This document shows, piece by piece, positions 4,622 to 24,000 of a stretch of 24,000 nt of DNA. This DNA comes from Atopobiaceae bacterium. GTDB taxonomy: Bacteria; Actinomycetota; Coriobacteriia; Coriobacteriales; Atopobiaceae. The position numbers and the translations under genes were made by a program. The number at the start of each line of letters is the position of its first letter. Position 1 is the stretch's first letter. The notes under the pieces are model-generated. The model was not told the origin of the DNA. It was given only the letters and a program-made list of their open reading frames with translations, and searched no databases. The stretch spans positions 7,286 through 31,285 of the forward strand of contig JAGAVX010000102.1 of the NCBI GenBank assembly GCA_017941705.1. The letters run 5' to 3'.

Positions 4622-4653
4622 GCATAGCTGAATCGTAAGGCGAGGATATCGTA

Positions 4654-4685
4654 GGGGGTTCGTCGGGCACATGTGACGAACCCCC
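4654..4685 (+). terminator. putative intrinsic terminator after the hydrolase gene
   Basis: An 11-bp GC-rich stem GGGGGTTCGTC (4654-4664) pairs with GACGAACCCCC (4675-4685) around a 10-nt loop. The downstream T tract is weak (CTTGTG). Confidence 0.45.
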
Positions 4686-4832
4686 CTTGTGCGGCTCGGG
4701 GCAATTTGCGGCGCTGACCCACTGTTATGTAATGGCGGCGAAACTGATGCGGACGGGAGCCGTATCGTGGCTGCTTGTGCTATCGTTCACAAGGTATCTT
4801 GACGCTAAGTATGGAAACATGTCCAGACCTGT

Positions 4833-5696
4833 TTGTCGTGCAATTTGGAGTGCGTTTTGAAGGAAATCGAAACAGTGGCTGCCGATGAGGAGCTGCGCAA
4901 GAGCTATGCAGACGAGGTCTGGTCGCCTGATTCCCAGCGCGATCGGAGCATCCTGTACGAGCTCGTGTCAAAGGACTTCAAGCTCAAGTATCGCCGCAGC
5001 GCTCTTGGTGTGGCTTGGAGCGTACTAAACCCGCTGCTCATGATGTCGGTCATGGCTGCGGTCTTCTCGCACATGATGCGCTTCTCGTCTGACGCGATTC
5101 CCAACTACCCGCTGTACATCATCTTGGGCAATATCACCTTCAGCCTGATGAGCGAGGCGACCAGCTCGGGAATGGGCTCGATTATCAATGCCGCGTCGCT
5201 GCTCAAGAAGGTGCGCGTCAACCGTTGGGTCTTTCCGGTCGAGAAGGTGCTGTTCGCCGTCATCAACTTTGCGCTGTCCCTTCTCGCCGTTGCGATCGTC
5301 ATGATCGTGTTCCGCATTGCGCCTACGTGGCACGTCATCATGCTGCCGCTGTTCCTCGTGTACATTACGGTGTTCTGCGTAGGCCTCTCACTGTTCTTGG
5401 CCACCGCCTCGGTCTTCTTCCGTGACGTGATGCACCTTTGGGGCGTCTTCCTTACCGCGTGGACTTACGCGACGCCTCTCTTCTACCCGCAGGAGATCCT
5501 TCCCGAGTGGATGCTCAAGCTTGAGACGTTCAATCCCATGTACCACTACGTCAACTACATCCGCAACTTGCTGTTGTACCAGGTCACCCCTTCGCTCAAG
5601 CTCAACCTTGCCTGCGCGGGCTTTGCGGTCCTGTCGCTGTTGGTGGGATGGGTCGTCTTCCGTCGCAACGAACGCAAGTTCATCCTGTTTATCTAG
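4833..5696 (+). CDS. ABC-2-type polysaccharide/teichoic-acid exporter permease (TagG/Wzm-like)
   Basis: Carries the family N-terminal block DFKLKYRRSALGVAWSVLNPLLMM, followed by ~6 hydrophobic segments. It lies directly upstream of the matching ATPase. The start is uncertain: TTG at 4833 is the ORF-track start, while GTG at 4875 preceded by GAAGGA would give a typical 273-aa protein. Confidence 0.8.
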   Translation: MSCNLECVLKEIETVAADEELRKSYADEVWSPDSQRDRSILYELVSKDFKLKYRRSALGVAWSVLNPLLMMSVMAAVFSHMMRFSSDAIPNYPLYIILGNITFSLMSEATSSGMGSIINAASLLKKVRVNRWVFPVEKVLFAVINFALSLLAVAIVMIVFRIAPTWHVIMLPLFLVYITVFCVGLSLFLATASVFFRDVMHLWGVFLTAWTYATPLFYPQEILPEWMLKLETFNPMYHYVNYIRNLLLYQVTPSLKLNLACAGFAVLSLLVGWVVFRRNERKFILFI

Positions 5697-5707
5697 GGGG
5701 TCTAACG

Positions 5708-6805
5708 ATGGCAGAAACAGAACCCCGCAATCAGGGCGACATGAGCACCCGCTCTTGGTGGATAGATGCCGAGCTCACACGCGATGTGATCAAGGACACC
5801 GAGTTCACGCGTCTGGACGTGACCCCCACGCTGATCAACCCCAGCAAGCTGAAGTACGTCTATCGCTACGAGAACAGCGATGGCACCTTGCAGGGCGAGA
5901 CGCCGACGCAGAACGATCCGGTCTTTCTCTTCATTCCACCAGATGCAGGCACCTATACGATCACGGCTGTCGCCACGGCGGTGGATGGCGAGGAGGACTA
6001 TGCCTCAGTTACGTTGAGGGTCGAGAGCAGCGAGCCCTTCACTCGTCCGGCGCTTCCCGATGACGACGCTCCGACCATCATCAAGGTCGATGACGTGTCG
6101 ATGGTGTTTAACATCGCCTCCGAGCGCTTCAACTCGCTCAAGGAGTACTTCATTGCGATGCTGAGCCACGAGCTTCGCTTTAAGGAATTCCGCGCGCTCG
6201 ATCACATCAGCTTCGAGGTCAAGCGTGGCGAGGCCTTTGGCTTGGTGGGGACCAACGGCTCTGGTAAGTCGACCATGCTCAAGATTATCGCCGGCGTACT
6301 CGACGCAACTGAGGGCAGCTGTCAGGTGGTTGGCAGCATCGCCCCGCTGATTGAGCTTGGTGCCGGCTTTGACGCCGAGCTGACCGCTGCCGAGAACATC
6401 TACCTCAACGGTGCGCTCCTCGGCTACAAGCGAGAGTTCATCGAAGAGCACTTTGATGACATCGTCGAGTTCGCCGAGCTCGAGGGCTTCATGGACATGC
6501 CGCTCAAGAACTATTCCAGTGGTATGGTGGCTCGAATCGCCTTTGCCATCGCGACTGTCGCCGAGCCTGACGTGCTCATCGTCGACGAGACACTTTCGGT
6601 CGGTGACTTCCTGTTCCAAAAGAAGTGCCAGCGCCGCATCAAGCAGCTTGTCGAAAACGACAATGTCACAGTGCTGCTGGTCAGCCACAGCATTGATTTG
6701 GTTGAACACCTGTGTGATCGCGTGTGCTGGATCGAGAAGGGCGAGATGAGGATGCTCGGCCCCACCGAAGAGGTCTGCAACGCCTACAAGAGTCTGGAGA
6801 AGTAA
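5708..6805 (+). CDS. polysaccharide/teichoic-acid ABC exporter ATP-binding protein (TagH/Wzt-like) with a ~120-aa N-terminal extension
   Basis: ATG 5708 follows a GGGGG RBS 8 nt upstream and lies 12 nt after the permease stop. Motifs: Walker A GTNGSGKST, signature YSSGMVARIAFA, Walker B VLIVDETLSVGD, H-loop LVSHS. The nucleotide-binding domain starts near IIKVDDVSMVFNI (nt ~6074). Confidence 0.85.
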   Translation: MAETEPRNQGDMSTRSWWIDAELTRDVIKDTEFTRLDVTPTLINPSKLKYVYRYENSDGTLQGETPTQNDPVFLFIPPDAGTYTITAVATAVDGEEDYASVTLRVESSEPFTRPALPDDDAPTIIKVDDVSMVFNIASERFNSLKEYFIAMLSHELRFKEFRALDHISFEVKRGEAFGLVGTNGSGKSTMLKIIAGVLDATEGSCQVVGSIAPLIELGAGFDAELTAAENIYLNGALLGYKREFIEEHFDDIVEFAELEGFMDMPLKNYSSGMVARIAFAIATVAEPDVLIVDETLSVGDFLFQKKCQRRIKQLVENDNVTVLLVSHSIDLVEHLCDRVCWIEKGEMRMLGPTEEVCNAYKSLEK

Positions 6806-6808
6806 GCC

Positions 6809-7930
6809 ATGCCCGATATCGACGTTTCAGTCATCATCCCGTGCTATAACACGGAGAAGTACCTCGACCAGGCGCTTTCCTCTGCCGAGCAGAACGATCG
6901 CATAAACCTCGAGATCATCGTGCTCAACGATGGCTCGACCGATGGGTCGCTTGAGATCATGCGGGCTCACGAGGCTGCCGACCCGCGCGTGCGCGTGATC
7001 GACAAGGAGAACCAGGGCTATGGTGCCTCGGTCAACCGTGGTATCGCAGAGTCACGAGGCACCTATATCGGTATCCTCGAGCCTGATGACTGGGTAAAGC
7101 CGCACATGTATGACGACCTGTTTGAGTACGGCGCGCAGTTTGATCCCGCTCCGGACATCATCAAGAGTCCATACACGCGCGTGGTGCTTCCCGAGACGCC
7201 CGACCAGTATCTCTGCAACTGCTCGTACTACAAGCGTATCGATCCGGGCTTCCAGCCCTTCCGCCTGTCGGATGCGCCGCATCTGATTCAGCACCATCCG
7301 TCCATCTGGTCGGCTCTGTACCGTAAGGGCTTCCTCGAGGAGAAGAACATCCACTTCATGGAGGTCCCGGGTGCTGGATGGGTCGACAACCCCTTCTTGA
7401 TCGAGACGCTGTGCCAGGCCGATCGTATCGTGTACAAGGAGCAGCCGTACTACTGCTATCGCGAGGACCTGCCCGGTTCGTCGTCTGTGTTGCGTAGGGC
7501 TCGCCTCAGCTTTGATCGCTGGGACCAGATGGCCGACATCATCGAGAACCTTGGGATTACCGATGACGGCATCCTCAAGGCCTTCTATGTCATTGGCTTC
7601 AGGTATGTGGGTGGCGGTTTTGCCGACTTTGGCGATGACAATCCCGATATCGCCGCATGGGCTGGCGACATGTTCCGCCGTATGGATCCCGAGCGCGTCG
7701 TGCGCATCGACAACCTCTCGGGCCACATGAAGAACCTCTACTTCAAGTTGAGCGGTTACGATCCCATCCCGTATAGCAGGATGGGATACTACCGCGAGCT
7801 GGTGAAGGAGTTCATCTACTCCACAAGCACCAATGGCATTGGCTTTGGCCTCGGACGCATCAACCTCTATATCCGGCAGAAGGCCACGGAGCAGGGGATT
7901 CTAAAGCAAAAGCTGAACATACAGGAGTAG
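6809..7930 (+). CDS. family 2 glycosyltransferase (373 aa)
   Basis: ATG lies 3 nt after the ATPase stop. GT-A/GT2 blocks are present: VSVIIPCYNTEKYL, LNDGSTDGS, NQGYGASVNRG and EPDDW (DxD-type). Confidence 0.85.
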   Translation: MPDIDVSVIIPCYNTEKYLDQALSSAEQNDRINLEIIVLNDGSTDGSLEIMRAHEAADPRVRVIDKENQGYGASVNRGIAESRGTYIGILEPDDWVKPHMYDDLFEYGAQFDPAPDIIKSPYTRVVLPETPDQYLCNCSYYKRIDPGFQPFRLSDAPHLIQHHPSIWSALYRKGFLEEKNIHFMEVPGAGWVDNPFLIETLCQADRIVYKEQPYYCYREDLPGSSSVLRRARLSFDRWDQMADIIENLGITDDGILKAFYVIGFRYVGGGFADFGDDNPDIAAWAGDMFRRMDPERVVRIDNLSGHMKNLYFKLSGYDPIPYSRMGYYRELVKEFIYSTSTNGIGFGLGRINLYIRQKATEQGILKQKLNIQE

Positions 7931-8044: not shown

Positions 8045-9573
<1,529 letters not shown>

Positions 9574-11961: not shown

Positions 11962-12002
11962 GCCTATACTCGTTGCACAACGCATCTACGCTAGGAGGAA
12001 CC

Positions 12003-12644
12003 ATGCAGCTCAACGCCATGATCGATCACACCAATCTCAAGCAGGATGCCCGTCGCGCCGACATCGAGCGCCTTTGTGACGAGGCCGTGCAGTATGGCTT
12101 TGCCACCGTGTGCGTCAATTCCTGCTGGGTTTCGCTGGCGGCCGCGCTTCTCGCCGAGACGAACATCGGCGTGACCACGGTGGTCGGTTTCCCGCTGGGT
12201 GCCGCCTCGACGCAGGCGAAGGTCGCCGAGACCATACAGGCAGTTGCCGACGGGGCCGACGAAATCGACATGGTGCTCAACGTCGGGCGCTGCAAGGACG
12301 GTGACGATGACTTCTGCACGGAGGACATCGCAGCCGTTGTCAAAGCCGCTGGTGATGCCACCGTCAAGGTCATCCTCGAGTGCTGCCTGCTGAACGACAA
12401 CGAGATCGTGCGTGCCTGCGAGGACTCGGTTGCAGCCGGTGCCGACTTCGTCAAGACGAGTACGGGCTTTTCGAAGGGCGGGGCGACAATCCATGACGTG
12501 GAGCTCATGCGCAAGACCGTGGGTGACCGCTGCAAGGTCAAGGCCGCTGGTGGCATGCACGCCCGCGCTGAGGCTGAGGCCATGGTCCAGGCCGGCGCCG
12601 ATCGCCTAGGCACCAGCGCCAGCATCGCCATTGTGGAGGGCTGA
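12003..12644 (+). CDS. deoC: deoxyribose-phosphate aldolase
   Basis: AGGAGGA RBS sits 3 nt before ATG 12003; the ORF-track start at 11973 lacks an RBS. Motifs: IDHTNLK, VCVN, VVGFPLGA, EIDMVLN, VKVILE, FVKTSTGF (Schiff-base Lys) and KAAGG. Confidence 0.9.
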   Translation: MQLNAMIDHTNLKQDARRADIERLCDEAVQYGFATVCVNSCWVSLAAALLAETNIGVTTVVGFPLGAASTQAKVAETIQAVADGADEIDMVLNVGRCKDGDDDFCTEDIAAVVKAAGDATVKVILECCLLNDNEIVRACEDSVAAGADFVKTSTGFSKGGATIHDVELMRKTVGDRCKVKAAGGMHARAEAEAMVQAGADRLGTSASIAIVEG

Positions 12645-12646
12645 GC

Positions 12647-13645
12647 ATGCCCGTGAGTTTTGCCGACCTCTATGGCCGCCTGATTGACCTGCACCTGCAT
12701 ATCGATGGCTCGATCAGCGTGCCTGCCGCGCGCAGGCTTGCCGAGCTTGACGGACGTCCCATCGACCTCACTGATGCCGAGGTATTCGACCGGCTCTCGG
12801 TGGGAGAGGAATGCGAGGACCTCAACGAGTATCTGGACAAGTTCTCGTTTCCGCTCTCGCTTGTGCAGACGAGCACGCAGATCGAGGAGAGCGTCTACCT
12901 GCTCCAGGAGGAGCTGCGCGAGCAAGGCTACGCATATGCCGAGCTTCGTTTTGCGCCGCAATCCCAATGTGCCCGTGGGCTGACGCAGCGGGAGGTGATC
13001 GAGGCATCGCTGGCGGGGCTTAGCCGTTCGAGCTTCGAGGCACGTCTCATCCTTTGCTGCATGCGCGGGGACGACACGCTTGCGGCAAACCTCGAGACAG
13101 TCGAGCTGGCCGCAGAGTATCTCGGCAACGAGATCGTGGCGATTGACCTTGCCGGCGCGGAGGCGCTCTTCCCTACGAGCGACTATGCGCCGGTCTTTGC
13201 GCGGGCCCGCGAGCTGGGCGTCCCCTTTACCATTCACGCCGGCGAGGCAGGTGGTCCCAAGAGCGTGCGAGCGGCGCTCGATATGGGCGCCACGCGCATT
13301 GGCCACGGCGTGCGGGCAGTCGAGGACTCCAGCCTGGTCGCGGAGCTCGCCGAGCGAAGGATGCCTCTGGAAGTCTGCTTTACCTCCGAGGTCCAGACGG
13401 GTGCCCTGGAGTCATATCGTCATGCGGGATCATTGCGCCAGCTTCTGGATGCAGGTTGCATGGTGACCATCAACAGCGACAACTGCTCCGTCTCGAACAC
13501 GTGGGCCGCACGCGAGCTGGTAATCGTGTCGGAGGCGCTAGGCCTCACGCAGGCAGAGGTTGACCAGCTGCTGCTCAATGCGGTTGAGGCGTCCTTTGCC
13601 GACGAGGCGACCAAGCATCGCTTGCGCGAGATTGTGGTGCGCTAA
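12647..13645 (+). CDS. add: adenosine deaminase
   Basis: ATG lies 2 nt after the deoC stop. Metal and catalytic blocks present: DLHLHIDGS, YAELRFAPQ, IDLAGAE, FTIHAGE, RIGHG and VTINSDN. Confidence 0.9.
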   Translation: MPVSFADLYGRLIDLHLHIDGSISVPAARRLAELDGRPIDLTDAEVFDRLSVGEECEDLNEYLDKFSFPLSLVQTSTQIEESVYLLQEELREQGYAYAELRFAPQSQCARGLTQREVIEASLAGLSRSSFEARLILCCMRGDDTLAANLETVELAAEYLGNEIVAIDLAGAEALFPTSDYAPVFARARELGVPFTIHAGEAGGPKSVRAALDMGATRIGHGVRAVEDSSLVAELAERRMPLEVCFTSEVQTGALESYRHAGSLRQLLDAGCMVTINSDNCSVSNTWAARELVIVSEALGLTQAEVDQLLLNAVEASFADEATKHRLREIVVR

Positions 13646-13652
13646 GAGAGCG

Positions 13653-14513
13653 CTAACGCAACTCCACTGTGCCAAATCCCGCCTTGCACGCGAGGGCTTC
13701 GAGCTCGACCATGCGCTCGTCAGTCGGCGATTCGGCGTCAGCCAGCTCTCCCACTACGCCAAACCTGCGGAACCTGATGAGTTTGAGCTTGGTCGACGCA
13801 ATCTTGCTGCCCAGTGTCGAGGCAATGCCGGCAATGGTCTCCTCGGGGTCGTTCCATCCGGGCACGACCACGATGCGCAGCTCCTCGATCTTGTCGTGTT
13901 CGGCAAGGAGGGCAAGGTTGCGCTTGACCACGCTTGCGTCACCGTTCGTGAGCCGCTTGAACACGTCAGTGTCCCATGCCTTGATGTCGAGCATCACGCC
14001 GTCGGCCACCTCGAGCAGGTCCTCGTGCTCCCAGAACGGCACGCATCCGTTACTGTCTATCAACGTTCCGAGGCCGGCCCCGCGGCAGAGGCTGAACAGC
14101 TCGCGCATCCAATCTGGGTGCAGCATGCACTCGCCTCCCGAGACGGTGATGCCACGGATGAACGGCTGGTACGAGTGCACGACCTCGAATACCTCGCTCG
14201 GCGTGAGCCGCTCGATCTTGGGGCTGGCCTTGTGAGGGCACACATGAATGCAGGTGTCGCACTGCACGCAGGCGTCTTTGTTCCACATCACCTGTTTGCC
14301 CTGCTTGTGCAGCGCGCCAGCCGGACACTGCTCGACGCACAGCCCGCACGCAACGCACAGGTTCTGCGTCTCGGGGTTGTGGCAGTACTTGCAGGCGATG
14401 TTGCACCCCTGCAGAAAGATGGAGCATCGCGATCCCGGACCATCGACTAGCGAAAACGGTATGACCTTATTCACGGGTGCGGTAAGACTATCAGCCAAGG
14501 CCATCATGAACAC
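13653..14513 (-). CDS. yjjW: glycyl-radical enzyme activating protein (radical SAM, YjjW type, 286 aa)
   Basis: VDGPGSRCSIFLQGCNIACKYCHNPE carries the CX3CX2C radical-SAM cluster. Two ferredoxin-like motifs follow: CVACGLCVEQCP and CVQCDTCIHVCP. It lies directly downstream of the glycyl-radical enzyme. The start is GTG 14513 or ATG 14507/14504. Confidence 0.8.
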   Translation of the reverse strand: MFMMALADSLTAPVNKVIPFSLVDGPGSRCSIFLQGCNIACKYCHNPETQNLCVACGLCVEQCPAGALHKQGKQVMWNKDACVQCDTCIHVCPHKASPKIERLTPSEVFEVVHSYQPFIRGITVSGGECMLHPDWMRELFSLCRGAGLGTLIDSNGCVPFWEHEDLLEVADGVMLDIKAWDTDVFKRLTNGDASVVKRNLALLAEHDKIEELRIVVVPGWNDPEETIAGIASTLGSKIASTKLKLIRFRRFGVVGELADAESPTDERMVELEALACKAGFGTVELR

Positions 14514-14560
14514 TCTTTCATGTTAATTGATGTTCCCCGCCGCGATGGCGAGGACAAAGA

Positions 14561-14705
14561 AAGGGGATGCAAGCGTGCCTTCCCCTTGGAGCTTGGGGTG
14601 ATACGAAAGCCCGACCTTCATGCTTCCGGCGACCTCTGAGCCGCTTGGTCTATCAGCTCTTCTTGACGAGTCAGGCGAAGCGTGAGCCGGAAGCATGAAG
14701 GTCGG
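14561..14705 (-). promoter_or_regulatory. structured intercistronic region between yjjI and yjjW: a long-range 20-bp stem plus a terminator-like hairpin
   Basis: Perfect inverted repeat CCGACCTTCATGCTTCCGGC (14611-14630) pairs with GCCGGAAGCATGAAGGTCGG (14686-14705), with a 55-nt spacer. A second hairpin AAGGGGA (14561-14567) pairs with TCCCCTT (14581-14587). On the minus strand the second hairpin is followed by TCTTTGT. Confidence 0.5.
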
Positions 14706-14718
14706 ACATAGGTTTGTG

Positions 14719-16233
14719 TTATCCCAGACGCACCTTTCGATCGGCCAGGTCGTTGGCGCGCCAGTTGCCCTCGCCATCGTGGCTGGTGTCGGCCAGCACT
14801 GCCTCGCCGCGTGCGAACTTCTCCATCTCGGAGCGCTTGACGAGGAAGCCCGTAATGCGCACGAGGTCGGAATCGCTGGGATAGAACGAGAGGTACTTGT
14901 CGTCCACGGCGAACGCGCCCTTGACCACATCGAGCAGGGCATCCACGTTCTGGGCAGCCGTGGGCTCGACGGGGAAGATGTCGCTCACGCCAGCGGTGAA
15001 GAAGCGGTGCATGCGCGCGCAGTGGCGAATGTGGTCAAAGAAGACCTCGGGTTCGGAGCCGACGCGGATGCGCACGCCGGGGGTCGAGGAAGTCTGGTCA
15101 CCAAAGCCGGCCTGGGCATGCATCATGTATTTGCCGCCACCAGCCTCGGAGTACGGCGCGTCCCAAGCCTGAACCTGAGCGGTCATCTTGGTCATGATCT
15201 CGTCGGCAAGGTCGTTCGCCTCGGGGTCGCTGCCATAGACATGGTCGGGTCCGAGCAGCTTCTCGATGCACTCGTGCATGCCGATCATGCCGAACATGCC
15301 CACAAAGCGCTCGCGTTCGATGAGGCCTTCCTTCACGAGGAACGAGGTCTGGAAGAAGTTGGAGTCCTCGACGAGGAACTTGATGCGTGCGTCCATGTAT
15401 TCGAGCAGTGCGCCGGTCGCGTTGGGGAGCAGCTCGTTCATGAAGTGGTCCACGCTGGTGGCAAGGTCAGCGAGCTGGCTGAGCTTGACGCGGTCGAGGC
15501 AGTAGGCGCCGCCACGCACGGGCAGCACGTTGTAGCAGCTGACGACGGTGTAGGCGTCCTTGGGGCCGTCCTGGGCCAGCGGATAGATGTCACGCAGCAT
15601 GCGGTCGTTGGCATATGCGGGATTGGCGCAGGCCATGGAGGTCTGCAGGGCCAGGCGAGCGAAGTCGTCAGGCGTCACCTCGGGGTCATACTTGAGCGTG
15701 AAGTTTGGCACGGCGTTTTGGACCTCGGCGTCTGCCTTGAGGAGCAGGCGACCGGCGCGCGTGTCCTCGGGACCAAGGTTTGCGTGGCAGTAGCCGCTGG
15801 CCACGGTGCGATCGATGTAGTTGAGGAAGCGCTTGAAGCGAGGGAGGATCTCCTCGTCGGAGAGACCGTCCAGGAACGGGTCGAAGACGCGGTCGAGCTG
15901 GCCGACGTAGACCGGGCGACCGGTGACGGAGGGGACGTTCTGGTACAGGATCTGCAGGTTCATGAGCAGGTCGTCGAGGTTGTCCGGTGCGTCGAGGCGC
16001 AGGAAGTCGCTGCCTTGGCGAGCGAAGCGCTCCATGTCGCAGCAGATGTAGCGTGGACGGTACGGGGCATTGCCCTCATGCATGTCGCAGATGGCGTCAC
16101 GCTCAAAGAACCAGTCGAACTCAGGAGTCGTGGGAATGGGGTGCTCGCAGTTCTCAGCCGCCTGGGCCAGGTGAATCAGCTTCTGGCCATAGGTGAGGTT
16201 GCCTGCCGTGATGATGTCCATGAACTCGCTCAT
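14719..16233 (-). CDS. yjjI: YjjI-family (DUF3029) short glycyl-radical enzyme, 504 aa, substrate unknown
   Basis: ATG 16233 has a GGAGG RBS 5 nt upstream; the ORF-track extension to 16386 runs through a palindrome and is rejected. The C-terminal glycyl-radical-type motif is DLVRITGFLV (Gly codon 14848-14850, 42 aa from the C-terminus). The ~500-aa size and the adjacent YjjW-type activase match the E. coli yjjI/yjjW pair. Confidence 0.7.
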   Translation of the reverse strand: MSEFMDIITAGNLTYGQKLIHLAQAAENCEHPIPTTPEFDWFFERDAICDMHEGNAPYRPRYICCDMERFARQGSDFLRLDAPDNLDDLLMNLQILYQNVPSVTGRPVYVGQLDRVFDPFLDGLSDEEILPRFKRFLNYIDRTVASGYCHANLGPEDTRAGRLLLKADAEVQNAVPNFTLKYDPEVTPDDFARLALQTSMACANPAYANDRMLRDIYPLAQDGPKDAYTVVSCYNVLPVRGGAYCLDRVKLSQLADLATSVDHFMNELLPNATGALLEYMDARIKFLVEDSNFFQTSFLVKEGLIERERFVGMFGMIGMHECIEKLLGPDHVYGSDPEANDLADEIMTKMTAQVQAWDAPYSEAGGGKYMMHAQAGFGDQTSSTPGVRIRVGSEPEVFFDHIRHCARMHRFFTAGVSDIFPVEPTAAQNVDALLDVVKGAFAVDDKYLSFYPSDSDLVRITGFLVKRSEMEKFARGEAVLADTSHDGEGNWRANDLADRKVRLG

Positions 16234-16270
16234 GTGCGCCTCCGCGTGCGATGTGTCGTTAGTTGCCGTA

Positions 16271-16276
16271 ATGATA
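16271..16276 (-). promoter_or_regulatory. candidate -10 element (TATCAT on the minus strand) for yjjI-yjjW
   Basis: The minus strand reads GCGCGCGTTATCATTACGG about 38 nt upstream of ATG 16233 and downstream of the 37-bp hairpin. A similar CGTATCAT lies upstream of psuK (19472-19477). Pattern match only. Confidence 0.25.
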
Positions 16277-16330
16277 ACGCGCGCGCGAGCTGTCGCATGG
16301 GTGGGTAGAGAAGAAGCACAAGAAGCTGTG

Positions 16331-16413
16331 CGGCACGCCTGCTCCCCGGGAAGAGCTGTGCCATGGGACATGTTGCCCCATGGCACAGCTCTTCCCGGGG
16401 AGCAGGCGTGCCG
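16331..16413 (-). terminator. perfect 37-bp inverted repeat (83-nt hairpin) between the DUF1963 gene and yjjI; probable, unusually long, terminator
   Basis: CGGCACGCCTGCTCCCCGGGAAGAGCTGTGCCATGGG (16331-16367) is the exact reverse complement of 16377-16413, with a 9-nt loop ACATGTTGC. It starts 15 nt after the DUF1963 stop. On the minus strand a pyrimidine/U-rich stretch follows (CACAGCTTCTTGTGCTTCTTCTCT). Confidence 0.6.
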
Positions 16414-16428
16414 CTGGATGAATTGCTC

Positions 16429-17337
16429 CTAGTAGCAGTCCCAGTTGAAGAGCACGCGCGAGAAGTCGCCGCGGCTCAGCGCCTCTCCGTTGATGAAGAA
16501 GCCGCCGATGCCAACGTCTCCCCAGAGGATGCGATCCTTCTTGGTGTCAGGGTCACCTTCCGAGTCAACCTGCAGCAGGAGCGTGTCAAACTCGTCGGCA
16601 AGCTCGCCGTAGCGTGGGTCCGATTGGGTGAAGAACGGGTGCCCAAACACAAAGTGCGCGGGTTCGGGGGTCTTGAGCTCATCAAAGAGCAGCGACACGC
16701 CGTCGTTGTCGAGCAGGTCCCAGTAGCTGTCGCGTCCGGCCACAAAGTCGTCGCCCATGATCTCGCGGCAGCATGCGACGAACAGCTCGTCGATGCGTCC
16801 GTCGGCCGTGTTCATGGTGCTGGTGGTAGGCTCGATGCGCAACGCGAACTCCCCTGCGAGCACGTTGCCCAAATAGTCCTCGTCAAAGCCCATGAGCGAG
16901 GTGGGCATGCCAATCGCCTCGACCTGCTCGGGTGTGACTGCCGGGTCGACCACCTTGTGCCATATCACGCGGAAGCCGTTCTGCCGCGTGGAGTCGTCAA
17001 AGTCCATGCCCGAGCAGTCGTCCTCAGCATCGATGAAGAACTGCAGCAGCCCCTTGCCGGGAAGCCGCTCGTCATCGCCAAAGTCCGCGAGGTTCAGCTG
17101 GGCGAGCAGCATGAGCTTCTGCCCTTTGGGAGTTGCGGGATAGCCCAAATCTGCCGGCCAGTAGGGGAGGCCGCCAAACTTGGTGTCGGTGAGGCCCGGC
17201 TTGCGGCCAGCCTCGATTCTCAGCCGGTAAGCCGGCATGCTCGTGCGCTTGCGGATGGCCTCGGCAATCACTGGCACCTTGTCAGTCGGGACGAGCGGAA
17301 GTGCGGGAACCTGTGCCTTTTGCTCTTCCTGTGTCAT
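16429..17337 (-). CDS. DUF1963 / YwqG-family protein (302 aa), function unknown
   Basis: Family blocks present: TKFGGLPYWP, LLAQLNLADF, GLLQFFI, GHPFFTQSDP, LLLQVDSE and ILWGDVGIGGFFI. The RBS GGAGAGGTGA precedes ATG 17337, which lies 37 nt downstream of the psuG stop. Confidence 0.8.
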   Translation of the reverse strand: MTQEEQKAQVPALPLVPTDKVPVIAEAIRKRTSMPAYRLRIEAGRKPGLTDTKFGGLPYWPADLGYPATPKGQKLMLLAQLNLADFGDDERLPGKGLLQFFIDAEDDCSGMDFDDSTRQNGFRVIWHKVVDPAVTPEQVEAIGMPTSLMGFDEDYLGNVLAGEFALRIEPTTSTMNTADGRIDELFVACCREIMGDDFVAGRDSYWDLLDNDGVSLLFDELKTPEPAHFVFGHPFFTQSDPRYGELADEFDTLLLQVDSEGDPDTKKDRILWGDVGIGGFFINGEALSRGDFSRVLFNWDCY

Positions 17338-17374: not shown

Positions 17375-18310
<936 letters not shown>

Positions 18311-19547: not shown

Positions 19548-20738
19548 ATGAGTAAGCGCGTTTTTGTCATCGTGCTGGACAGCTTTGGCATCGGCGAGGC
19601 TGCCGACGCGGCCGCCTGGGGAGACGAGGGTTCCAACACCCTCTGCGCCTGCGCCACCAGCTCCTACTTCTCTATCCCCAACCTCACCCGGCTCGGACTC
19701 TGCAACATCCACGGGGCACTCGAGTCGGTCTACGCCCACAGCCTGGCGCCCATCGATGCGCCGACCGGCGCCTTCGCGCGCCTTACAGAGGCCAGCCAGG
19801 GCAAGGACAGCACGGTGGGTCACTGGGAGATGGCCGGCGTCATCTCGCCCAAGCCGTTCCCGACCTACCCTCAGGGCTTCCCCGACGAGGTCATCAGGCC
19901 GTTCGAGGAGGCTACGGGTCGCAAGGTCATCTGCAACCTTCCGTACTCGGGCACGAAGGTCATCAAGGACTACGGCCGCGAGATGGTCGAGACCGGCGCG
20001 CTCATCGTCTACACCTCCGCCGACAGCGTCTTTCAGATCGCGGCACACGAGGACGTCGTCCCGGTCGAGCAGCTCTACGAGTATTGCCACATCGCGCGCG
20101 AGCAGCTTCAGGGCGAGCATGGGGTCGGGCGCGTGATCGCACGGCCGTTCAAGGGCGAATGGCCCTACAAGCGCACGAGGCGCCGCCATGACTACTCGCT
20201 CGAGCCGACTGGCACCACGATGCTCGACGTGCTCAAGTCGGAGGGACGCGACGTTCTGGGCGTGGGCAAGATCTATGATCTCTTTGCCGGTCGCGGGACG
20301 ACCGATCACGTGCTGACCGCCAACAACCCGGACGGCATCGACAAGACCATCGCATGGATGGATCGCGACTTTGACGGCCTCTGCTACACCAATTTGGTCG
20401 ACACCGACATGATCTATGGCCATCGCAACGACGTGGATGGCTATGCCAAGGCAATCTCGTACTTTGACGAGATGCTGCCCACAATGCTCGACAAGCTTCG
20501 CGAGGACGACCTCCTCATGATTACAGCGGACCACGGCTGCGACCCCGTGACGCCCTCGACCGACCACAGCCGCGAGGACGTCCCTTGGCTCGTGGCGGGA
20601 CCGCGTGTGCGCGCCGGTGTCGACTTGGGAGTCCTTCCGACCTTTGCCGACCTCTCGGCGACGGTGCTCGACTACCTTGGAGCGTCCGCGTTGGACACCG
20701 GTACCAGCAGGCTTTCGCAAATCATCGCCGAGGGATAG
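19548..20738 (+). CDS. deoB: phosphopentomutase
   Basis: N-terminus RVFVIVLDSFGIGEAADAAAWGDEGSNTL. Also GKDSTVGHWEMAG, VYTSADSVFQIAAHE, DLFAGRG, TNLVDTDMIYGHRND and ITADHGCDP. Length is 396 aa. Confidence 0.92.
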   Translation: MSKRVFVIVLDSFGIGEAADAAAWGDEGSNTLCACATSSYFSIPNLTRLGLCNIHGALESVYAHSLAPIDAPTGAFARLTEASQGKDSTVGHWEMAGVISPKPFPTYPQGFPDEVIRPFEEATGRKVICNLPYSGTKVIKDYGREMVETGALIVYTSADSVFQIAAHEDVVPVEQLYEYCHIAREQLQGEHGVGRVIARPFKGEWPYKRTRRRHDYSLEPTGTTMLDVLKSEGRDVLGVGKIYDLFAGRGTTDHVLTANNPDGIDKTIAWMDRDFDGLCYTNLVDTDMIYGHRNDVDGYAKAISYFDEMLPTMLDKLREDDLLMITADHGCDPVTPSTDHSREDVPWLVAGPRVRAGVDLGVLPTFADLSATVLDYLGASALDTGTSRLSQIIAEG

Positions 20739-20785
20739 GAATCTCCCTCAGCTGCTTCATACAACCACTTCGAAAGGACTGACGC

Positions 20786-21502
20786 ATGCCCACTCCAACT
20801 CCTCACAACAATGCAGAGCTCGGCGATATCGCAAAGGTCGTGCTCATGCCAGGAGACCCCCTGCGCGCCAAGGTCGTAGCCGACACCTATCTCGAGGACG
20901 TGACCTGCTTCAATGAGGTCCGCAACATGCTGGGATTCACTGGCTACTACCAGGGGCATCGCGTCTCGGTCATGGGCAGCGGCATGGGTATGCCCTCCAT
21001 CGGCATCTACTCGTACGAGCTCTACCACTTCTATGGCGTGAACGCCATCATCCGCATTGGCAGCGCCGGCGGCATCAACAAGAACGTCCAGGTGAGGGAC
21101 ATCGTCTTTGGACAGGGTGCCTGCACCGACTCCAACTTTGCCTACCAGTATGGCCTGCCGGGAACCATTGCCCCCATCGCCGACTTCGGTCTGCTGCGCC
21201 GTGCCGTCGAGGCTGCCGAGCGCCGCGGCGCGCGCTACCACGTGGGCAACCTGCTCTCCACTGACATCTTCTACAACGCCTACAACTACATCAAGGAGTG
21301 GGACGAGATGGGAGTCCTCGCGACCGAGATGGAGGCGGCCGCGCTCTACCTCAATGCCGCGAAGGCCGGCAAGAAGGCCCTCGGCATCATGACCGTCTCC
21401 GATCATCTGGTCACCGGAAAGCAGCTTTCTGCCGAACTGCGACAAAACTCCTTCACTGAGATGATGGAAATCGCTCTTGAGGTGGCGGTATCCGAGGCGT
21501 AA
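20786..21502 (+). CDS. deoD: purine nucleoside phosphorylase, DeoD (hexameric) type
   Basis: Close collinearity with E. coli DeoD as I recall it: TPHNNAELGDIAKVVLMPGDPLRAKVVADTYLEDV, VRNMLGFTGYYQG, SVMGSGMGMPS, IIRIGSAGG and TEMEAAALY. Length is 238 aa. Confidence 0.92.
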   Translation: MPTPTPHNNAELGDIAKVVLMPGDPLRAKVVADTYLEDVTCFNEVRNMLGFTGYYQGHRVSVMGSGMGMPSIGIYSYELYHFYGVNAIIRIGSAGGINKNVQVRDIVFGQGACTDSNFAYQYGLPGTIAPIADFGLLRRAVEAAERRGARYHVGNLLSTDIFYNAYNYIKEWDEMGVLATEMEAAALYLNAAKAGKKALGIMTVSDHLVTGKQLSAELRQNSFTEMMEIALEVAVSEA

Positions 21503-21506
21503 GCGC

Positions 21507-21512
21507 TATAGT
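21507..21512 (+). promoter_or_regulatory. candidate -10 element (TATAGT) for the BMP lipoprotein gene, giving a ~115-nt leader
   Basis: CGCTATAGTGTTT (21504-21516) is identical to 9706-9718 and starts 2 nt after the deoD stop. Confidence 0.3.
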
Positions 21513-21630
21513 GTTTCTGGTTTGTGAATCAATGGGGTTCGCGGACTCGTGATTGGACGGGGGAGACCCCGTGAGCGTACGTGACCTACGGCAAAAGGCC
21601 GCAGGCACGCATACCAAAGGGAGAGTGCGT

Positions 21631-22701
21631 ATGTTCGATGCCAAGATGACTCGTCGTACCTTTGCCGCCACCATGGGTGCCGGCGCTCTTGCTGCCCTCG
21701 CTGGCTGCGGTGGCGGCGGTGGGGCTGCTGAAGAGGGCGGCGACGCTGCCGAGGGCAACGTCAAGCTCGAGATGGTCACCGATACCGGTGGCGTCAACGA
21801 CCAGTCGTTCAACCAGCTCGCCTGGGCAGGCATGCAGCAGCTCAACGCTGACAACGGCTGGGAGGTCAGCTACATCGAGTCCAAGCAGGATTCCGACTAC
21901 ATGACCAACCTCGATAAGGCCGTCGACGATGGCGCCAGCCTCGTGTGGGGCATCGGCTTTGCCATGGCAGAGGCTGTCAACACCGCTGCCGACCAGAACC
22001 CCGACATCAAGTTCGCGCTCATCGACGGCACCAACGACAACGGCGCCGAGAACCTGACGGGCGTTCTGTTCAAGGCCCAGGAGCCTTCCTTCGCCGTGGG
22101 TTACATTGCTGCCCGCATGAGCGAGTCCGGCAAGATCGGCTTCGTCGGCGGCATGAGCTCCGAGACCATCCAGCAGTTCGAGTACGGCTTCTACGCTGGC
22201 ATCGAGTACGCCAACAAGGAGCAGAGCAAGTCCTGCACCTATCAGGGCCAGTACGCCGAGTCCTTCGGTGATGCCGCCAAGGGCAAGTCCATCGCCCAGA
22301 AAATGATCAAGGACGGCTGCGACGTCCTCTACCACGCCGCTGGTGGCACGGGCGTCGGCATGCTCGAGGCCTGCAACGACGCTGGCGTCTGGAGCATCGG
22401 CGTCGACCAGGACCAGGCTGTCCTGTTCCCCGACTACAAGACCATCATCACCTCCGCTCTCAAGAAGGTTGACGAGGCCGTCATCAACGTCTCCAACGGC
22501 ATCATCGACGGCTCCATCGCCGGTGGCGAAAACATCATCCTCGGTGCTGCCGAGGATGCCATTGGCATCGCCCCCACGCATGACAACCTGCCCGACGAGG
22601 TCTACAACGACGCCCTCGAGGTCATCGAGAAGATCAAGGCCGGTGACATCGTGGTTCCCTCCACCGAGGCCGAGCTCAAGGATTACATCGCTTCCCTCTA
22701 A
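21631..22701 (+). CDS. BMP-family (PnrA/TmpC/Med-like) nucleoside-binding ABC transporter lipoprotein
   Basis: ATG 21631 follows an AAAGGGAGAG RBS. The signal MFDAKMTRRTFAATMGAGALAALAGC carries a Tat-like TRRTF and the lipobox LAGC (Cys codon 21706-21708). BMP blocks present: TDTGGVNDQSFNQLAWAGM, FALIDG, IGFVGGM and VWSIGVDQDQ. Confidence 0.85.
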   Translation: MFDAKMTRRTFAATMGAGALAALAGCGGGGGAAEEGGDAAEGNVKLEMVTDTGGVNDQSFNQLAWAGMQQLNADNGWEVSYIESKQDSDYMTNLDKAVDDGASLVWGIGFAMAEAVNTAADQNPDIKFALIDGTNDNGAENLTGVLFKAQEPSFAVGYIAARMSESGKIGFVGGMSSETIQQFEYGFYAGIEYANKEQSKSCTYQGQYAESFGDAAKGKSIAQKMIKDGCDVLYHAAGGTGVGMLEACNDAGVWSIGVDQDQAVLFPDYKTIITSALKKVDEAVINVSNGIIDGSIAGGENIILGAAEDAIGIAPTHDNLPDEVYNDALEVIEKIKAGDIVVPSTEAELKDYIASL

Positions 22702-22724
22702 GGTATATGGCAGAGAGAACGTGC

Positions 22725-22756
22725 AAGGAGCGTCCCTTTGGGGCGCTCCTTTTTTA
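22725..22756 (+). terminator. intrinsic terminator after the binding-protein gene
   Basis: AGGAGCG-T-CCC (22726-22736) pairs with GGG-CGCTCCT (22741-22750) around the loop TTTG. A run of T residues follows (22750-22755). Confidence 0.75.
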
Positions 22757-22860
22757 GATGCAGACATGCGCAGCGGATGCGGTTGATCCATCTTTGCTTG
22801 CGTGTTCGTTAAGCGATGGCAAAAAGAATGGGGCCGCCGCTAAAAATGCCTTAGGTGTCA

Positions 22861-22866
22861 TATAGT
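22861..22866 (+). promoter_or_regulatory. candidate -10 element (TATAGT) for the ABC ATPase gene
   Basis: TCATATAGTATTTGATG lies ~35 nt upstream of GTG 22901 and resembles TATAGTGTTTGATG at 9709. Confidence 0.3.
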
Positions 22867-22900
22867 ATTTGATGCAGCTGTCAACAAAGGGAGGTGGCAC

Positions 22901-24000
22901 GTGGAAGCAAGTCCCGAGTATGCGGTGCAGATGCATGGCATCCTGAAGACTTTTGGTGCCTTCACAGCCCTCGACCACGTGGATCTAGACGTCAAGAAGC
23001 AGACGGTCCACGCTATTCTGGGCGAGAACGGTGCCGGCAAGACCACGCTCATGAACATCCTCTATGGCCTCTACCAGGCTGACGAGGGCGACATCTTCAT
23101 GGGTGGCGAGAAGGTAAACATCACAAGTCCGACCGACGCGATCAAGCATGGCATCGGCATGGTCCACCAGCACTTCATGCTGGTCGAGAACTTCACCGTG
23201 ACCGAGAACATCATCCTCGGCGACGAGGTGTGCGGTGCCGCGGGCGTGCTCGATATGGGCCGCGCTCGCAAAGAGGTCATGGAACTGGTCGACGAGTACG
23301 GCTTTGACGTGGACCCAGACGCCAAGATCGAGGACATCACCGTTGGCATGCAGCAGCGCGTCGAGATCCTTAAGGCACTCTATCGTGGCGCCGAGGTACT
23401 GATTCTGGACGAGCCGACGGCTGTCCTGACGCCGCAGGAGATTGACAAGCTCATCGAGATCATGCATGACCTGATTGCCAAGGGCAAGACGATCATCATC
23501 ATCACCCACAAGCTGCGCGAGATCATGCAGTCCGCCGACGAGTGCTCCATCATCCGCCGTGGCGTCTACATGGGTACGGTCAACGTCAAGGAGTCCAACG
23601 AGACCGAGCTTGCCTCCAAGATGGTCGGCCGCAACGTCAACCTGACCGTGGAGAAGACTCCCGCTCATCCTGGCGAGACGGTGCTCTCGATTCGCGACCT
23701 GACCGTCAAGGACGATCGCGGCATCGAGCAGGTGCGCGGCCTCAACCTCGACATCCGCGCGGGCGAGATCGTGGGCATCGCCGGCATCGACGGCAACGGT
23801 CAGCAGGAGCTGGTCGACGCCATCACAAATATCGTCAAGGCAGAGTCGGGCAGCATCAAGATCAATGGCCAGGAGATCGTCAACACCACACCCCGCACGA
23901 CCTTCCTCAACAAGATCGCGACCATCCCCTCTGACCGCCATCGCTGGGGTCTGGTGCTCCCCTTTGCCGTGAGCGAGAACTCGGTGCTCGAGCGTCATAC
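22901..24000 (+). CDS. nucleoside/sugar ABC transporter ATP-binding protein with duplicated ATPase domains (BMP-system type), 3'-truncated by the window edge
   Basis: Not in the ORF track because it has no stop before the window end. GTG 22901 follows an AAAGGGAGG RBS. My translation reads VEASPEYAVQMHGILKTFGAFTALDHVDLDVKKQTVHAILGENGAGKTTLMNILYG (Walker A), LSVGMQQRVEILKAL-type signature region, ILDEPTAVL (Walker B) and IIITHKL. The second domain starts LSIRDLTVKDDRG...GIAGIDGNGQQEL, and the frame is open to 24000 (...IPSDRHRWGLVLPFAVSENSVLERH). Confidence 0.85.
   Translation, partial: MEASPEYAVQMHGILKTFGAFTALDHVDLDVKKQTVHAILGENGAGKTTLMNILYGLYQADEGDIFMGGEKVNITSPTDAIKHGIGMVHQHFMLVENFTVTENIILGDEVCGAAGVLDMGRARKEVMELVDEYGFDVDPDAKIEDITVGMQQRVEILKALYRGAEVLILDEPTAVLTPQEIDKLIEIMHDLIAKGKTIIIITHKLREIMQSADECSIIRRGVYMGTVNVKESNETELASKMVGRNVNLTVEKTPAHPGETVLSIRDLTVKDDRGIEQVRGLNLDIRAGEIVGIAGIDGNGQQELVDAITNIVKAESGSIKINGQEIVNTTPRTTFLNKIATIPSDRHRWGLVLPFAVSENSVLERH

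Follow-up and report, generated by a model that had tools for sequence, protein, structure and literature searches.

What reaction is carried out by a glycyl-radical enzyme whose gene lies in the middle of an organism's genes for nucleoside utilization? The question is raised by a yjjI-yjjW pair in a 24,000-nucleotide stretch of the genome of an Atopobiaceae bacterium (hereafter the window: positions 7286-31285 of contig JAGAVX010000102.1, called C23 here, in assembly GCA_017941705.1, which amounts to 2.81 Mb and is 96.7% complete). The first gene encodes the glycyl-radical enzyme YjjI and the second its putative radical S-adenosylmethionine (SAM) activase, YjjW. The best explanation overall, which we consider about evenly poised between right and wrong, is that the pair is a working two-gene radical system that would catalyze a redox-neutral reaction on a substrate derived from nucleosides or pentoses. 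What the window adds to existing knowledge of the family is an unusually clean context, in the form of an "only nucleoside island," and a one-cysteine case for redox-neutral chemistry.

Assignment of the Pair to the YjjI/YjjW Family

In hidden Markov model (HMM) searches, YjjI matched PF11230 (YjjI-like, formerly DUF3029) with an E value of 5.2e-196 and 652 bits (cut-off 23), and it scored 580.1 bits against TIGR04040, for which the curated equivalog cut-off is 498.3, with model positions 2-497 of 497 covered. YjjW scored 361.5 bits against TIGR04041 (cut-off 250.2) and also matched Radical_SAM and several Fer4 models. An earlier reading of the DNA, made from the sequence only, had proposed a match to YjjI/DUF3029 and YjjW, and that proposal is borne out, as both proteins lie above the curated equivalog cut-offs. 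The two genes are almost certainly a YjjI/YjjW pair, and this pair is an intact new copy of a catalogued orphan family.

A GGAGG element lies 5 nucleotides before the start codon of yjjI, the ATG at 16233. A longer alternative frame that starts at a GTG and extends to 16386 would encode 555 residues. We preferred the 504-residue form because of the GGAGG spacing, because the 51 extra codons of the GTG form cross a 37 bp perfect inverted repeat, and because the TIGR04040 model and the YjjI homologues begin at the ATG.

The 504-residue translation ends ...DSDLVRITGFLVKRSEMEKF... and has the C-terminal motif DLVRITGFLV, with its Gly at the position given by the sequence-only reading (Table 1). 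That reading regarded the motif as noncanonical, a description that did not survive comparison with other members of the family. In an alignment of 30 members that are 32%-80% identical to the query, the motif reads R(30/30)-[I21/V9]-[T25/S5]-G(30/30)-[Y25/F5]-L-V-[K/R], and a profile search of Protein Data Bank (PDB) sequences aligned it to LQRITGYLV of Prevotella copri NrdD and RVSGYAV of pyruvate formate-lyase (PFL). Members of the YjjI family thus normally have Thr or Ser just ahead of the Gly, a feature that an NrdD shares. The corresponding motif of E. coli YjjI is V-T-G465-Y (preprint 10.64898/2026.08.13.742689). The window protein retains all 27 of the residues that are invariant in the 30-member alignment, and its closest relatives (92%-96% identical) come from metagenome-assembled genomes of rumen Atopobiaceae/Coriobacteriaceae.

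An NrdD-like Barrel with a Single Invariant Cysteine

An AlphaFold2 model built on the 30-member alignment had a mean predicted local distance difference test score (pLDDT) of 92.4 and a predicted template modeling score of 0.91. When the model was compared with the PDB by Foldseek, the top match was a class III ribonucleotide reductase (RNR; 8p2s_B, E value 1.6e-17, TMq 0.77), followed by the NrdD proteins of Streptococcus thermophilus, phage T4, and Thermotoga. A second tier of matches comprised PflD, YbiW, the hydroxyproline, propanediol, and glycerol dehydratases, and PFL. The neighbors of YjjI in the ESM Atlas agreed with this ranking, and no YjjI structure was found among the PDB entries by Foldseek. 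Foldseek and hhalign together revealed the ten-stranded barrel, finger-loop Cys, and C-terminal Gly loop of the NrdD fold. The structure prediction that the sequence-only reading had recommended thus yielded a confident NrdD-like barrel, in which the Gly462 and Cys233 sites were placed by alignment; our statements on the active site rest on alignments throughout.

Residues S232, C233, and N235 are invariant in the alignment (30/30) and are kept in the window protein. The next-best conserved Cys is Cys149 (Cys in 18 sequences and Val in 9), and no second invariant Cys was found among the 30 sequences. Cys233 aligned with Cys384 of E. coli NrdD (hhalign probability 90.5%; YjjI 33-436 versus NrdD 144-624), and S232-C233 aligned with C418-C419 of PFL in the PDB profile search. 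We take Cys384 to be the thiyl site of NrdD, and Cys175 and Met382 to be its reducing partners. Asn174-Cys175 of NrdD lies opposite an alignment gap in YjjI, and Met382 lies opposite Val231, in a column that is occupied by Ala, Val, or Ser across the family. We favor a redox-neutral reaction because YjjI has no second conserved redox Cys or Met, a lone catalytic Cys speaking for the return of the abstracted hydrogen, and on the basis of these alignments we judge the chances that the reaction is of this kind to be about level.

The other invariant polar residues of YjjI are E53, R61, Y62, D114, D141, H150, N177, T187, R248, E302, H372, Q374, and R388. Three Arg residues (R61, R248, and R388) are invariant and a fourth, R283, is present in 28 of the 30 sequences; these four conserved residues would suit a phosphorylated substrate.

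We compared YjjI with the known classes of glycyl-radical enzyme. The likeness to NrdD is the closest, as it includes the nearest fold, the aligned thiyl Cys, and the Gly motif RITG[YF]LV. However, YjjI cannot be assigned to NrdD by model (PF13597, 25.3 bits, below the gathering cut-off of 26.2; NF006732, 16.5 bits versus 657) or by residues, as it lacks the second redox Cys on the bottom face and the Met that neighbors the thiyl Cys and has neither the ATP-cone nor the Zn-Cys4 site. No ATP-cone Pfam match was found in YjjI, the alignment begins only at NrdD residue 144, and nothing in YjjI corresponds to the ~143 residues before it, which in E. coli NrdD include the ATP-cone; nor did the 30-member alignment contain a conserved C-terminal Cys or Zn-Cys4. 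The activases differ as well, NrdG being small whereas YjjW is a three-cluster activase of the PflC/CutD type, and the genome has a separate NrdD of its own. With PflB, YjjI shares the ten-stranded barrel of the glycyl-radical fold, but it is ~250 residues shorter. PFL needs a Cys-Cys pair, and in YjjI the first Cys of the pair is Ser in all 30 sequences; the match to PF02901 (E value 0.004) falls below the cut-off.

The glycyl-radical eliminases (glycerol and propanediol dehydratases, CutC, HypD, IslA, PflD, and YbiW) resemble YjjI in having a single catalytic Cys and three-cluster activases, and their chemistry is redox neutral, which is the type that we propose for YjjI. They carry a Glu two residues past the Cys (C-x-E) and are 750-850 residues long, whereas YjjI has 504 residues. 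Because YjjI has C233-Y234-N235 with an invariant Asn, we rejected its assignment to the C-x-E eliminases.

The window pair is most readily compared with YjjI (b4380) and YjjW (b4379) of E. coli K-12, to which its proteins are 38.5% and 42% identical, respectively. Both pairs are two-gene units that adjoin deo genes, and they share the length class, the R-[IV]-[TS]-G-[YF] and S-C-Y-N motifs, and the three-cluster activase. In E. coli, yjjI and yjjW overlap by ~30 nucleotides and are divergent from deoCABD, whereas the window pair is split by a 205-nucleotide structured spacer and is placed between deoC-add and psuGK-deoBD-bmp.

Pairing of YjjI with Its Activase

The translation of the activase gene contains CNIACKYC and two CX2CX2CX3CP motifs, as the sequence-only reading had stated. 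Both ferredoxin-type Cys4 motifs are kept in 61 of 68 YjjW homologues, and the other 7 lack the whole insert. YjjW also scored 156 bits against the general activase model TIGR02494. The protein is a three-cluster YjjW, as the sequence-only reading had proposed, but this type is the common one among activases of non-PFL glycyl-radical enzymes.

We examined the association of the two genes in two sets of loci. The first consisted of 52 loci recovered with the query YjjI and sorted manually into 23 lineage groups. The second came from 401 evenly sampled Bacillota genomes, of which 23 were YjjI positive and supplied 20 fetched loci. yjjW adjoins yjjI in 21 of the 23 groups and in 19 of the 20 sampled loci. 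When the two window proteins were co-folded, the interface score (ipSAE) was 0.79 in all three runs, compared with 0.00 for the best of three controls; among reference cases, 55 of 80 solved complexes but only 3 of 110 mismatched pairs attain the mark applied to this score. In the co-fold, contacts are predicted between YjjI residues 397-443 and 502 and YjjW residues 19-29 and 114-120. The co-fold supports, but does not demonstrate, a specific YjjI-YjjW interface, and similar complexes known to the predictor may account for part of the score. In E. coli, Gly465 of YjjI was labeled by a radical probe in live cells (August 2026 preprint 10.64898/2026.08.13.742689).

The archaeal YjjI homologue (L093-L095) is paired with a short activase of 247 residues without the ferredoxin insert.

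The Pair Lies within the Only Nucleoside-Utilization Island of the Genome

The genes that flank yjjIW are aroD, deoC, and add on one side and, on the other, a DUF1963 gene, psuG, a psuK-like kinase gene, deoB, deoD, and genes for a Bmp substrate-binding protein and an ATP-binding cassette (ABC) ATPase. The assignments of deoB (NF003766, 490 bits), DeoD (NF004489, 341 bits), and the Bmp protein (PF02608, E value 2e-73) were made by HMM; the psuK-like kinase scored 217 bits against the pseudouridine kinase model, below the equivalog cut-off of 540. Whole-genome tblastn showed that the deoB-deoD-Bmp operon continues past the window and that permease genes, cdd, and pdp lie further on the contig. 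By the same type of search across the assembly, add, psuG, psuK, deoB, deoD, Bmp, cdd, and the pdp/deoA homologue are single-copy genes, and all eight are located at 19.2-36.1 kb of C23, within ~17 kb around yjjIW. deoC has one additional copy elsewhere in the genome. yjjIW therefore sits midway in the organism's only nucleoside-utilization island, which occupies ~0.6% of the genome. By association, this position suggests that the pair carries out a radical step, sensitive to oxygen, on a sugar derived from nucleosides.

Gene Neighborhoods across the Family

E. coli K-12 carries yjjW-yjjI and deoCABD in divergent orientation, and CRP chromatin immunoprecipitation peaks have been found at the shared yjjI/deoC region (PMC4287617). 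Among the 23 lineage groups, 12 have genes for a Bmp binding protein, an ABC ATPase, and permeases near yjjI, and a Crp/Fnr regulator lies directly 5' in 10. deoD is present in 8 groups, deoB and deoC in 6 each, and psuG and cdd in 5 each. In Clostridium merdae, yjjI, yjjW, deoB, deoD, bmp, the ABC ATPase gene, and deoC follow one another in this order on one strand. deoC adjoins yjjIW in the window, in E. coli, and in Olsenella/Tractidigestivibacter, and it lies ~10 kb downstream of yjjI in C. merdae.

We inspected the loci of distant YjjI homologues (35%-43% identity) by means of precomputed Pfam calls. One locus (L085) carries, on a single strand, IU_nuc_hydro, ADP_ribosyl_GH, PfkB, PNP, a sulfatase-like gene, YjjI, YjjW, a major facilitator superfamily transporter, and Bmp. 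Two others (L090 and L091) have IU_nuc_hydro, ADP_ribosyl_GH, and a Bmp-type permease near YjjI, and L097 has A_deaminase, PfkB, YjjW, and YjjI. Genes for an ADP-ribosylglycohydrolase and an inosine-uridine nucleoside hydrolase recur together beside distant yjjI (L085, L090, and L091). Their recurrence would be in keeping with a ribosyl substrate that is modified or of the ADP-ribose type.

Other distant loci have features of their own. On a Mollicute contig (L096, GCA_024449855.1), a gene for a Bmp-type ABC permease lies directly upstream of YjjI and there is no yjjW directly downstream; this YjjI is readable only with TGA as Trp (a Mollicute-type code). In a Bacillota locus (L075:5246-8140), the genes that come after yjjW on its strand encode, in turn, an IF-2B-family isomerase, a class II aldolase, and a Bmp ABC system. 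The isomerase is of the MtnA or ribose-1,5-bisphosphate isomerase type, and the context resembles a 5-deoxyribose/methylthioribose shunt.

To judge these neighborhoods, we used random 19.5 kb regions of YjjI-positive genomes as a control and found a nucleoside-type gene in 1 of 20. The nucleoside link is strong in the clade of the window, recurs in unrelated lineages, and is partial across the family.

Several results weigh against a redox-neutral reaction on a nucleoside-derived substrate. In the Bacillota sample, a nucleoside-type gene was found within ~9 kb at 7 of the 20 YjjI loci, so that most loci are without one, and the count fell to 4 of 20 when we dropped the phosphoribosyltransferase and MtnA-like queries that had been taken from the same loci. 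Nucleoside company is missing at three of the four other Actinomycetota YjjI copies, and none of the four has deo genes nearby; one of them is adjoined by genes for a LysR regulator and a molybdoenzyme of the xanthine-dehydrogenase type. The archaeal copy (L093-L095, on metagenome contigs) lies amid translation and sulfur-carrier genes, in an archaeal context that includes eIF-1A, NMD3, RIO1, and eIF-2B, with no nucleoside genes around it. Within the window, yjjIW is not evidently cotranscribed with any deo gene, as it is convergent with add and a 37 bp repeat intervenes before psuG. With respect to the chemistry, the missing second conserved Cys does not strictly exclude reduction, being compatible with the use of a small-molecule reductant. 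Finally, no paper in the literature searched, to late 2026, assigns a substrate or reaction to the YjjI/YjjW family, as the sequence-only reading had stated. An August 2026 preprint still describes E. coli YjjI as an "uncharacterized putative GRE" (10.64898/2026.08.13.742689), and a review of glycyl-radical enzymes from 2026 passes over the protein, which otherwise figures only in lists and in one biclustering study. That study, from 2011, assigned YjjI to an FNR/nitrate coexpression module, noted a predicted NrdD-like fold, and advanced a "nitrogen metabolism" hypothesis (PMC3228777), but the biclustering evidence shows anaerobic/FNR coexpression and not a reaction.

These observations bear on the alternative that the substrate of YjjI is unrelated to nucleosides and that the neighborhood reflects shared anaerobic or catabolite regulation, or an island built by transfer. 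Loci with no nucleoside genes near YjjI (the archaeal L093-L095 as well as L056-L058, L065-L070, L083-L084, L087, and L088) are those expected from this alternative, and by expression E. coli yjjI clusters with the FNR/nitrate anaerobic regulon and not with deo (PMC3228777). However, nucleoside genes accompany yjjI in at least eight separate lineages (in Actinomycetota, Bacillota, Pseudomonadota, and a Mollicute), compared with 1 of 20 controls, and yjjI and Bmp ABC genes are arranged on the same strand in Clostridia. We consider an unrelated substrate rather unlikely. The gene company of yjjIW is the reason why we favor a nucleoside-type substrate, and because the neighborhood link is partial across the family, we rate a nucleoside- or pentose-derived substrate at an even chance or only slightly better.

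Proposed Reaction and Candidate Substrates

Family membership, fold, catalytic motifs, a predicted interface, and genomic linkage are what the analysis demonstrates; radical formation in this copy, a redox-neutral type of reaction, and the class of substrate are inferred. YjjW, predicted to hold a [4Fe-4S] cluster that binds SAM and two further clusters of the ferredoxin type, would cleave SAM and remove a hydrogen atom from Gly462 of YjjI to give a stable glycyl radical. The glycyl radical would then convert Cys233, which forms the tip of the finger loop within the RNR-like barrel, to a thiyl radical, and the thiyl radical would abstract a hydrogen atom from the substrate. In outline, this path from Gly radical to Cys thiyl radical to substrate is that of PFL, NrdD, and the eliminases. 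An elimination or rearrangement would follow, in which a neighboring leaving group is lost and the hydrogen is returned from Cys233. The substrate would be an imported nucleoside, or a pentose or pentose phosphate freed from one, and the product would be passed to the Deo enzymes.

The enzyme combinations encoded near yjjIW in the various genomes (DeoD with DeoB, PsuK with PsuG, and nucleoside hydrolase with PfkB kinase) converge on ribose-5-phosphate or a close relative, and DeoC needs a 2-deoxy sugar phosphate. A specific form of the proposal would be that YjjI is an RNR-derived enzyme stripped of its reducing half, which performs only the radical 2'- (or 2-) elimination on a ribosyl compound from scavenged RNA nucleosides. 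The candidates would be ribose-5-phosphate, ribose-1-phosphate, a nucleoside, and a 2'-O-methylated or otherwise modified ribose. We regard this specific form as unlikely.

A related alternative is that YjjI is a stripped-down reductase, which would carry out a 2'-deoxygenation like that of RNR, with a nucleoside, ribose-1-phosphate, or ribose-5-phosphate as substrate and formate or another compound as external reductant, so feeding DeoC, which would split the ribose carbon into glyceraldehyde-3-phosphate and acetaldehyde. The nearest fold (NrdD), the Gly motif shared with an NrdD, and the production of ribose-5-phosphate by DeoD with DeoB and by PsuK with PsuG are in keeping with such a reaction, as is the position of deoC, which is beside yjjIW in the three cases listed above and on the same strand in C. 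merdae. Yet Cys233 is the sole invariant Cys, the counterpart of NrdD Cys175 falls in a gap, and the column of Met382 holds Val, Ala, or Ser. The presence of deoC in 22 of the 23 YjjI-positive Bacillota genomes would also fit, but deoC is present in 341 of the 401 sampled genomes (85%), so the figure represents no enrichment, and we rejected deoC co-occurrence as an uninformative test of whether YjjI feeds DeoC. Nor would the organism need such a reductase, as its genome has an ordinary NrdD, complete on contig C73, and transketolase and TAL/FSA-family genes, with which ribose-5-phosphate is not a dead end. We consider a reductase distinctly unlikely.

The transketolase genes, which are split, lie on C40 and C72, and the TAL/FSA gene lies on C58; their presence led us to rule out the idea of ribose-5-phosphate as a dead end. 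A second NrdD is apparently split over the ends of contigs C16 and C53. C58 (~3357-7565) also encodes another homologue of glycyl-radical activases, with 30% identity to YjjW, at a distance of ~3 kb from the TAL/FSA-family gene. This layout recalls E. coli ybiW-ybiY-fsaA, which we take to serve in anhydro-hexitol phosphate dehydration.

YjjI appears to be the last E. coli glycyl-radical enzyme without an assigned reaction. PflB and NrdD have long been characterized, and TdcE is also counted among the assigned enzymes. The structures of PflD and YbiW have been solved with bound anhydro-hexitol 6-phosphates (PDB titles). For YjjI, the clean island and the one-cysteine RNR-like site narrow the search for the substrate to a small number of nucleosides, pentoses, and pentose phosphates that can be purchased, and they also predict that no reductant is needed. 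A redox-neutral reaction on such a compound, if confirmed, would be a new reaction class in the anaerobic scavenging of nucleosides and RNA in gut ecosystems. If the elimination-only form were true, it would provide a previously unknown route by which ribose carbon enters the Deo pathway under anaerobic conditions, and E. coli would have no orphan glycyl-radical enzyme left.

Integrity and Expression of the Genes

We also considered whether yjjIW might be a decaying or noncatalytic remnant, such as a spare radical-domain donor or a regulator. Nothing specific speaks for this, except that the 205-nucleotide spacer is unusual when compared with the gap of only a few bases between yjjI and yjjW in most relatives. 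Both frames are open and of full length, all of the family-invariant residues are kept, the close relatives are highly similar, and the AlphaFold2 model is highly confident. In four metatranscriptome libraries from the bovine gut, contigs with 85%-90% likeness to the window DNA cover yjjI (14755-16233) in tiles, which argues weakly in the same direction. These libraries were chosen through a related protein and may contain DNA, and the exact DNA of the window was found in no RNA library (Logan contigs of relatives only); the contigs lend weak support to the expression of yjjI relatives in the rumen. A remnant seems very improbable.

The spacer contains a perfect 20 bp inverted repeat that encloses 55 nucleotides and, second, a GC hairpin followed by TTTCTTTGT. 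Judging from these elements, the spacer may attenuate read-through and so keep the activase below the level of the enzyme. The 37 bp repeat, with a loop of 9 nucleotides, leaves open reading frames on both strands at its position; it probably ends the psuK-psuG-DUF1963 transcript and leaves yjjI with its own leader of ~100 nucleotides. A scan of 13500-16600 for sigma-70 promoters and terminators yielded no promoter and nothing above the shuffled expectation, and the spacer terminator was not called.

Distribution of YjjI

The YjjI family is small and tightly conserved: a phmmer search of 1.84 billion representative proteins returned 421 YjjI matches, most of them fragments, with only ~20 full-length clusters at 50% identity. 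YjjI was found in gut and rumen Actinomycetota, Bacillota, Pseudomonadota, Mollicutes, and one archaeon, and 5 of 401 sampled Actinomycetota genomes have a YjjI above the cut-off. In a comparison with L021-L027 and L055-L058, the window protein is 58%-60% identical to Clostridia copies but only 36%-38% identical to the four other Actinomycetota copies found, a pattern of identities that suggests transfer of YjjI between gut Bacillota and Coriobacteriia.

Features of the Window

Table 1. Positions of yjjIW, its sequence elements, and neighboring genes (window coordinates)
Feature	Position	Strand	Basis or remark
deoC	11973-12644	+	TIGR00126, 259 bits
add	12647-13645	+	TIGR01430, 249 bits; convergent with yjjW
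yjjW, 286-residue radical-SAM activase; ATG 14507 or 14504 equally plausible as start	13653-14513	-	TIGR04041, Radical_SAM, Fer4
Two CX2CX2CX3CP ferredoxin-type motifs (C53-P64, C82-P93), predicted two auxiliary [4Fe-4S] clusters	14235-14357	-	Translation, Fer4
CX3CX2C radical-SAM cluster motif (C37, C41, C44; CNIACKYC)	14382-14405	-	Translation; 68/68 homologues
yjjI-yjjW spacer, 205 nucleotides	14514-14718	-	Direct sequence reading
yjjI, 504-residue YjjI-family glycyl-radical enzyme	14719-16233	-	PF11230, TIGR04040, GGAGG ribosome-binding site
Gly462 codon, predicted glycyl-radical site in R459-I-T-G462-F	14848-14850	-	R459, G462 invariant 30/30
Cys233 codon, sole invariant Cys, S232-C233-Y234-N235, predicted thiyl-radical site	15535-15537	-	Cys 30/30
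Perfect 37 bp inverted repeat, 9-nucleotide loop, between DUF1963 stop and yjjI start	16331-16413		Direct sequence reading
DUF1963 (YwqG-like) gene, between psuG and yjjI	16429-17337		
psuG	17375-18310	-	PF04227, E value 3e-136
psuK-like PfkB kinase	18381 to ~19325	-	PF00294
deoB, deoD, Bmp/PnrA-type substrate-binding protein, ABC ATPase	19548-24000	+	HMM matches

The DUF1963 gene is kept between psuG and yjjI in close relatives, with 68%-82% identity (L001, L005, L006, L014, L020, and L047). Elsewhere in the window, a gene for a glycoside hydrolase family 1 (GH1) 6-phospho-beta-glucosidase (8113-9573) has 27 tblastn matches of at least half its length in the genome and belongs to an unusually large family of paralogues.

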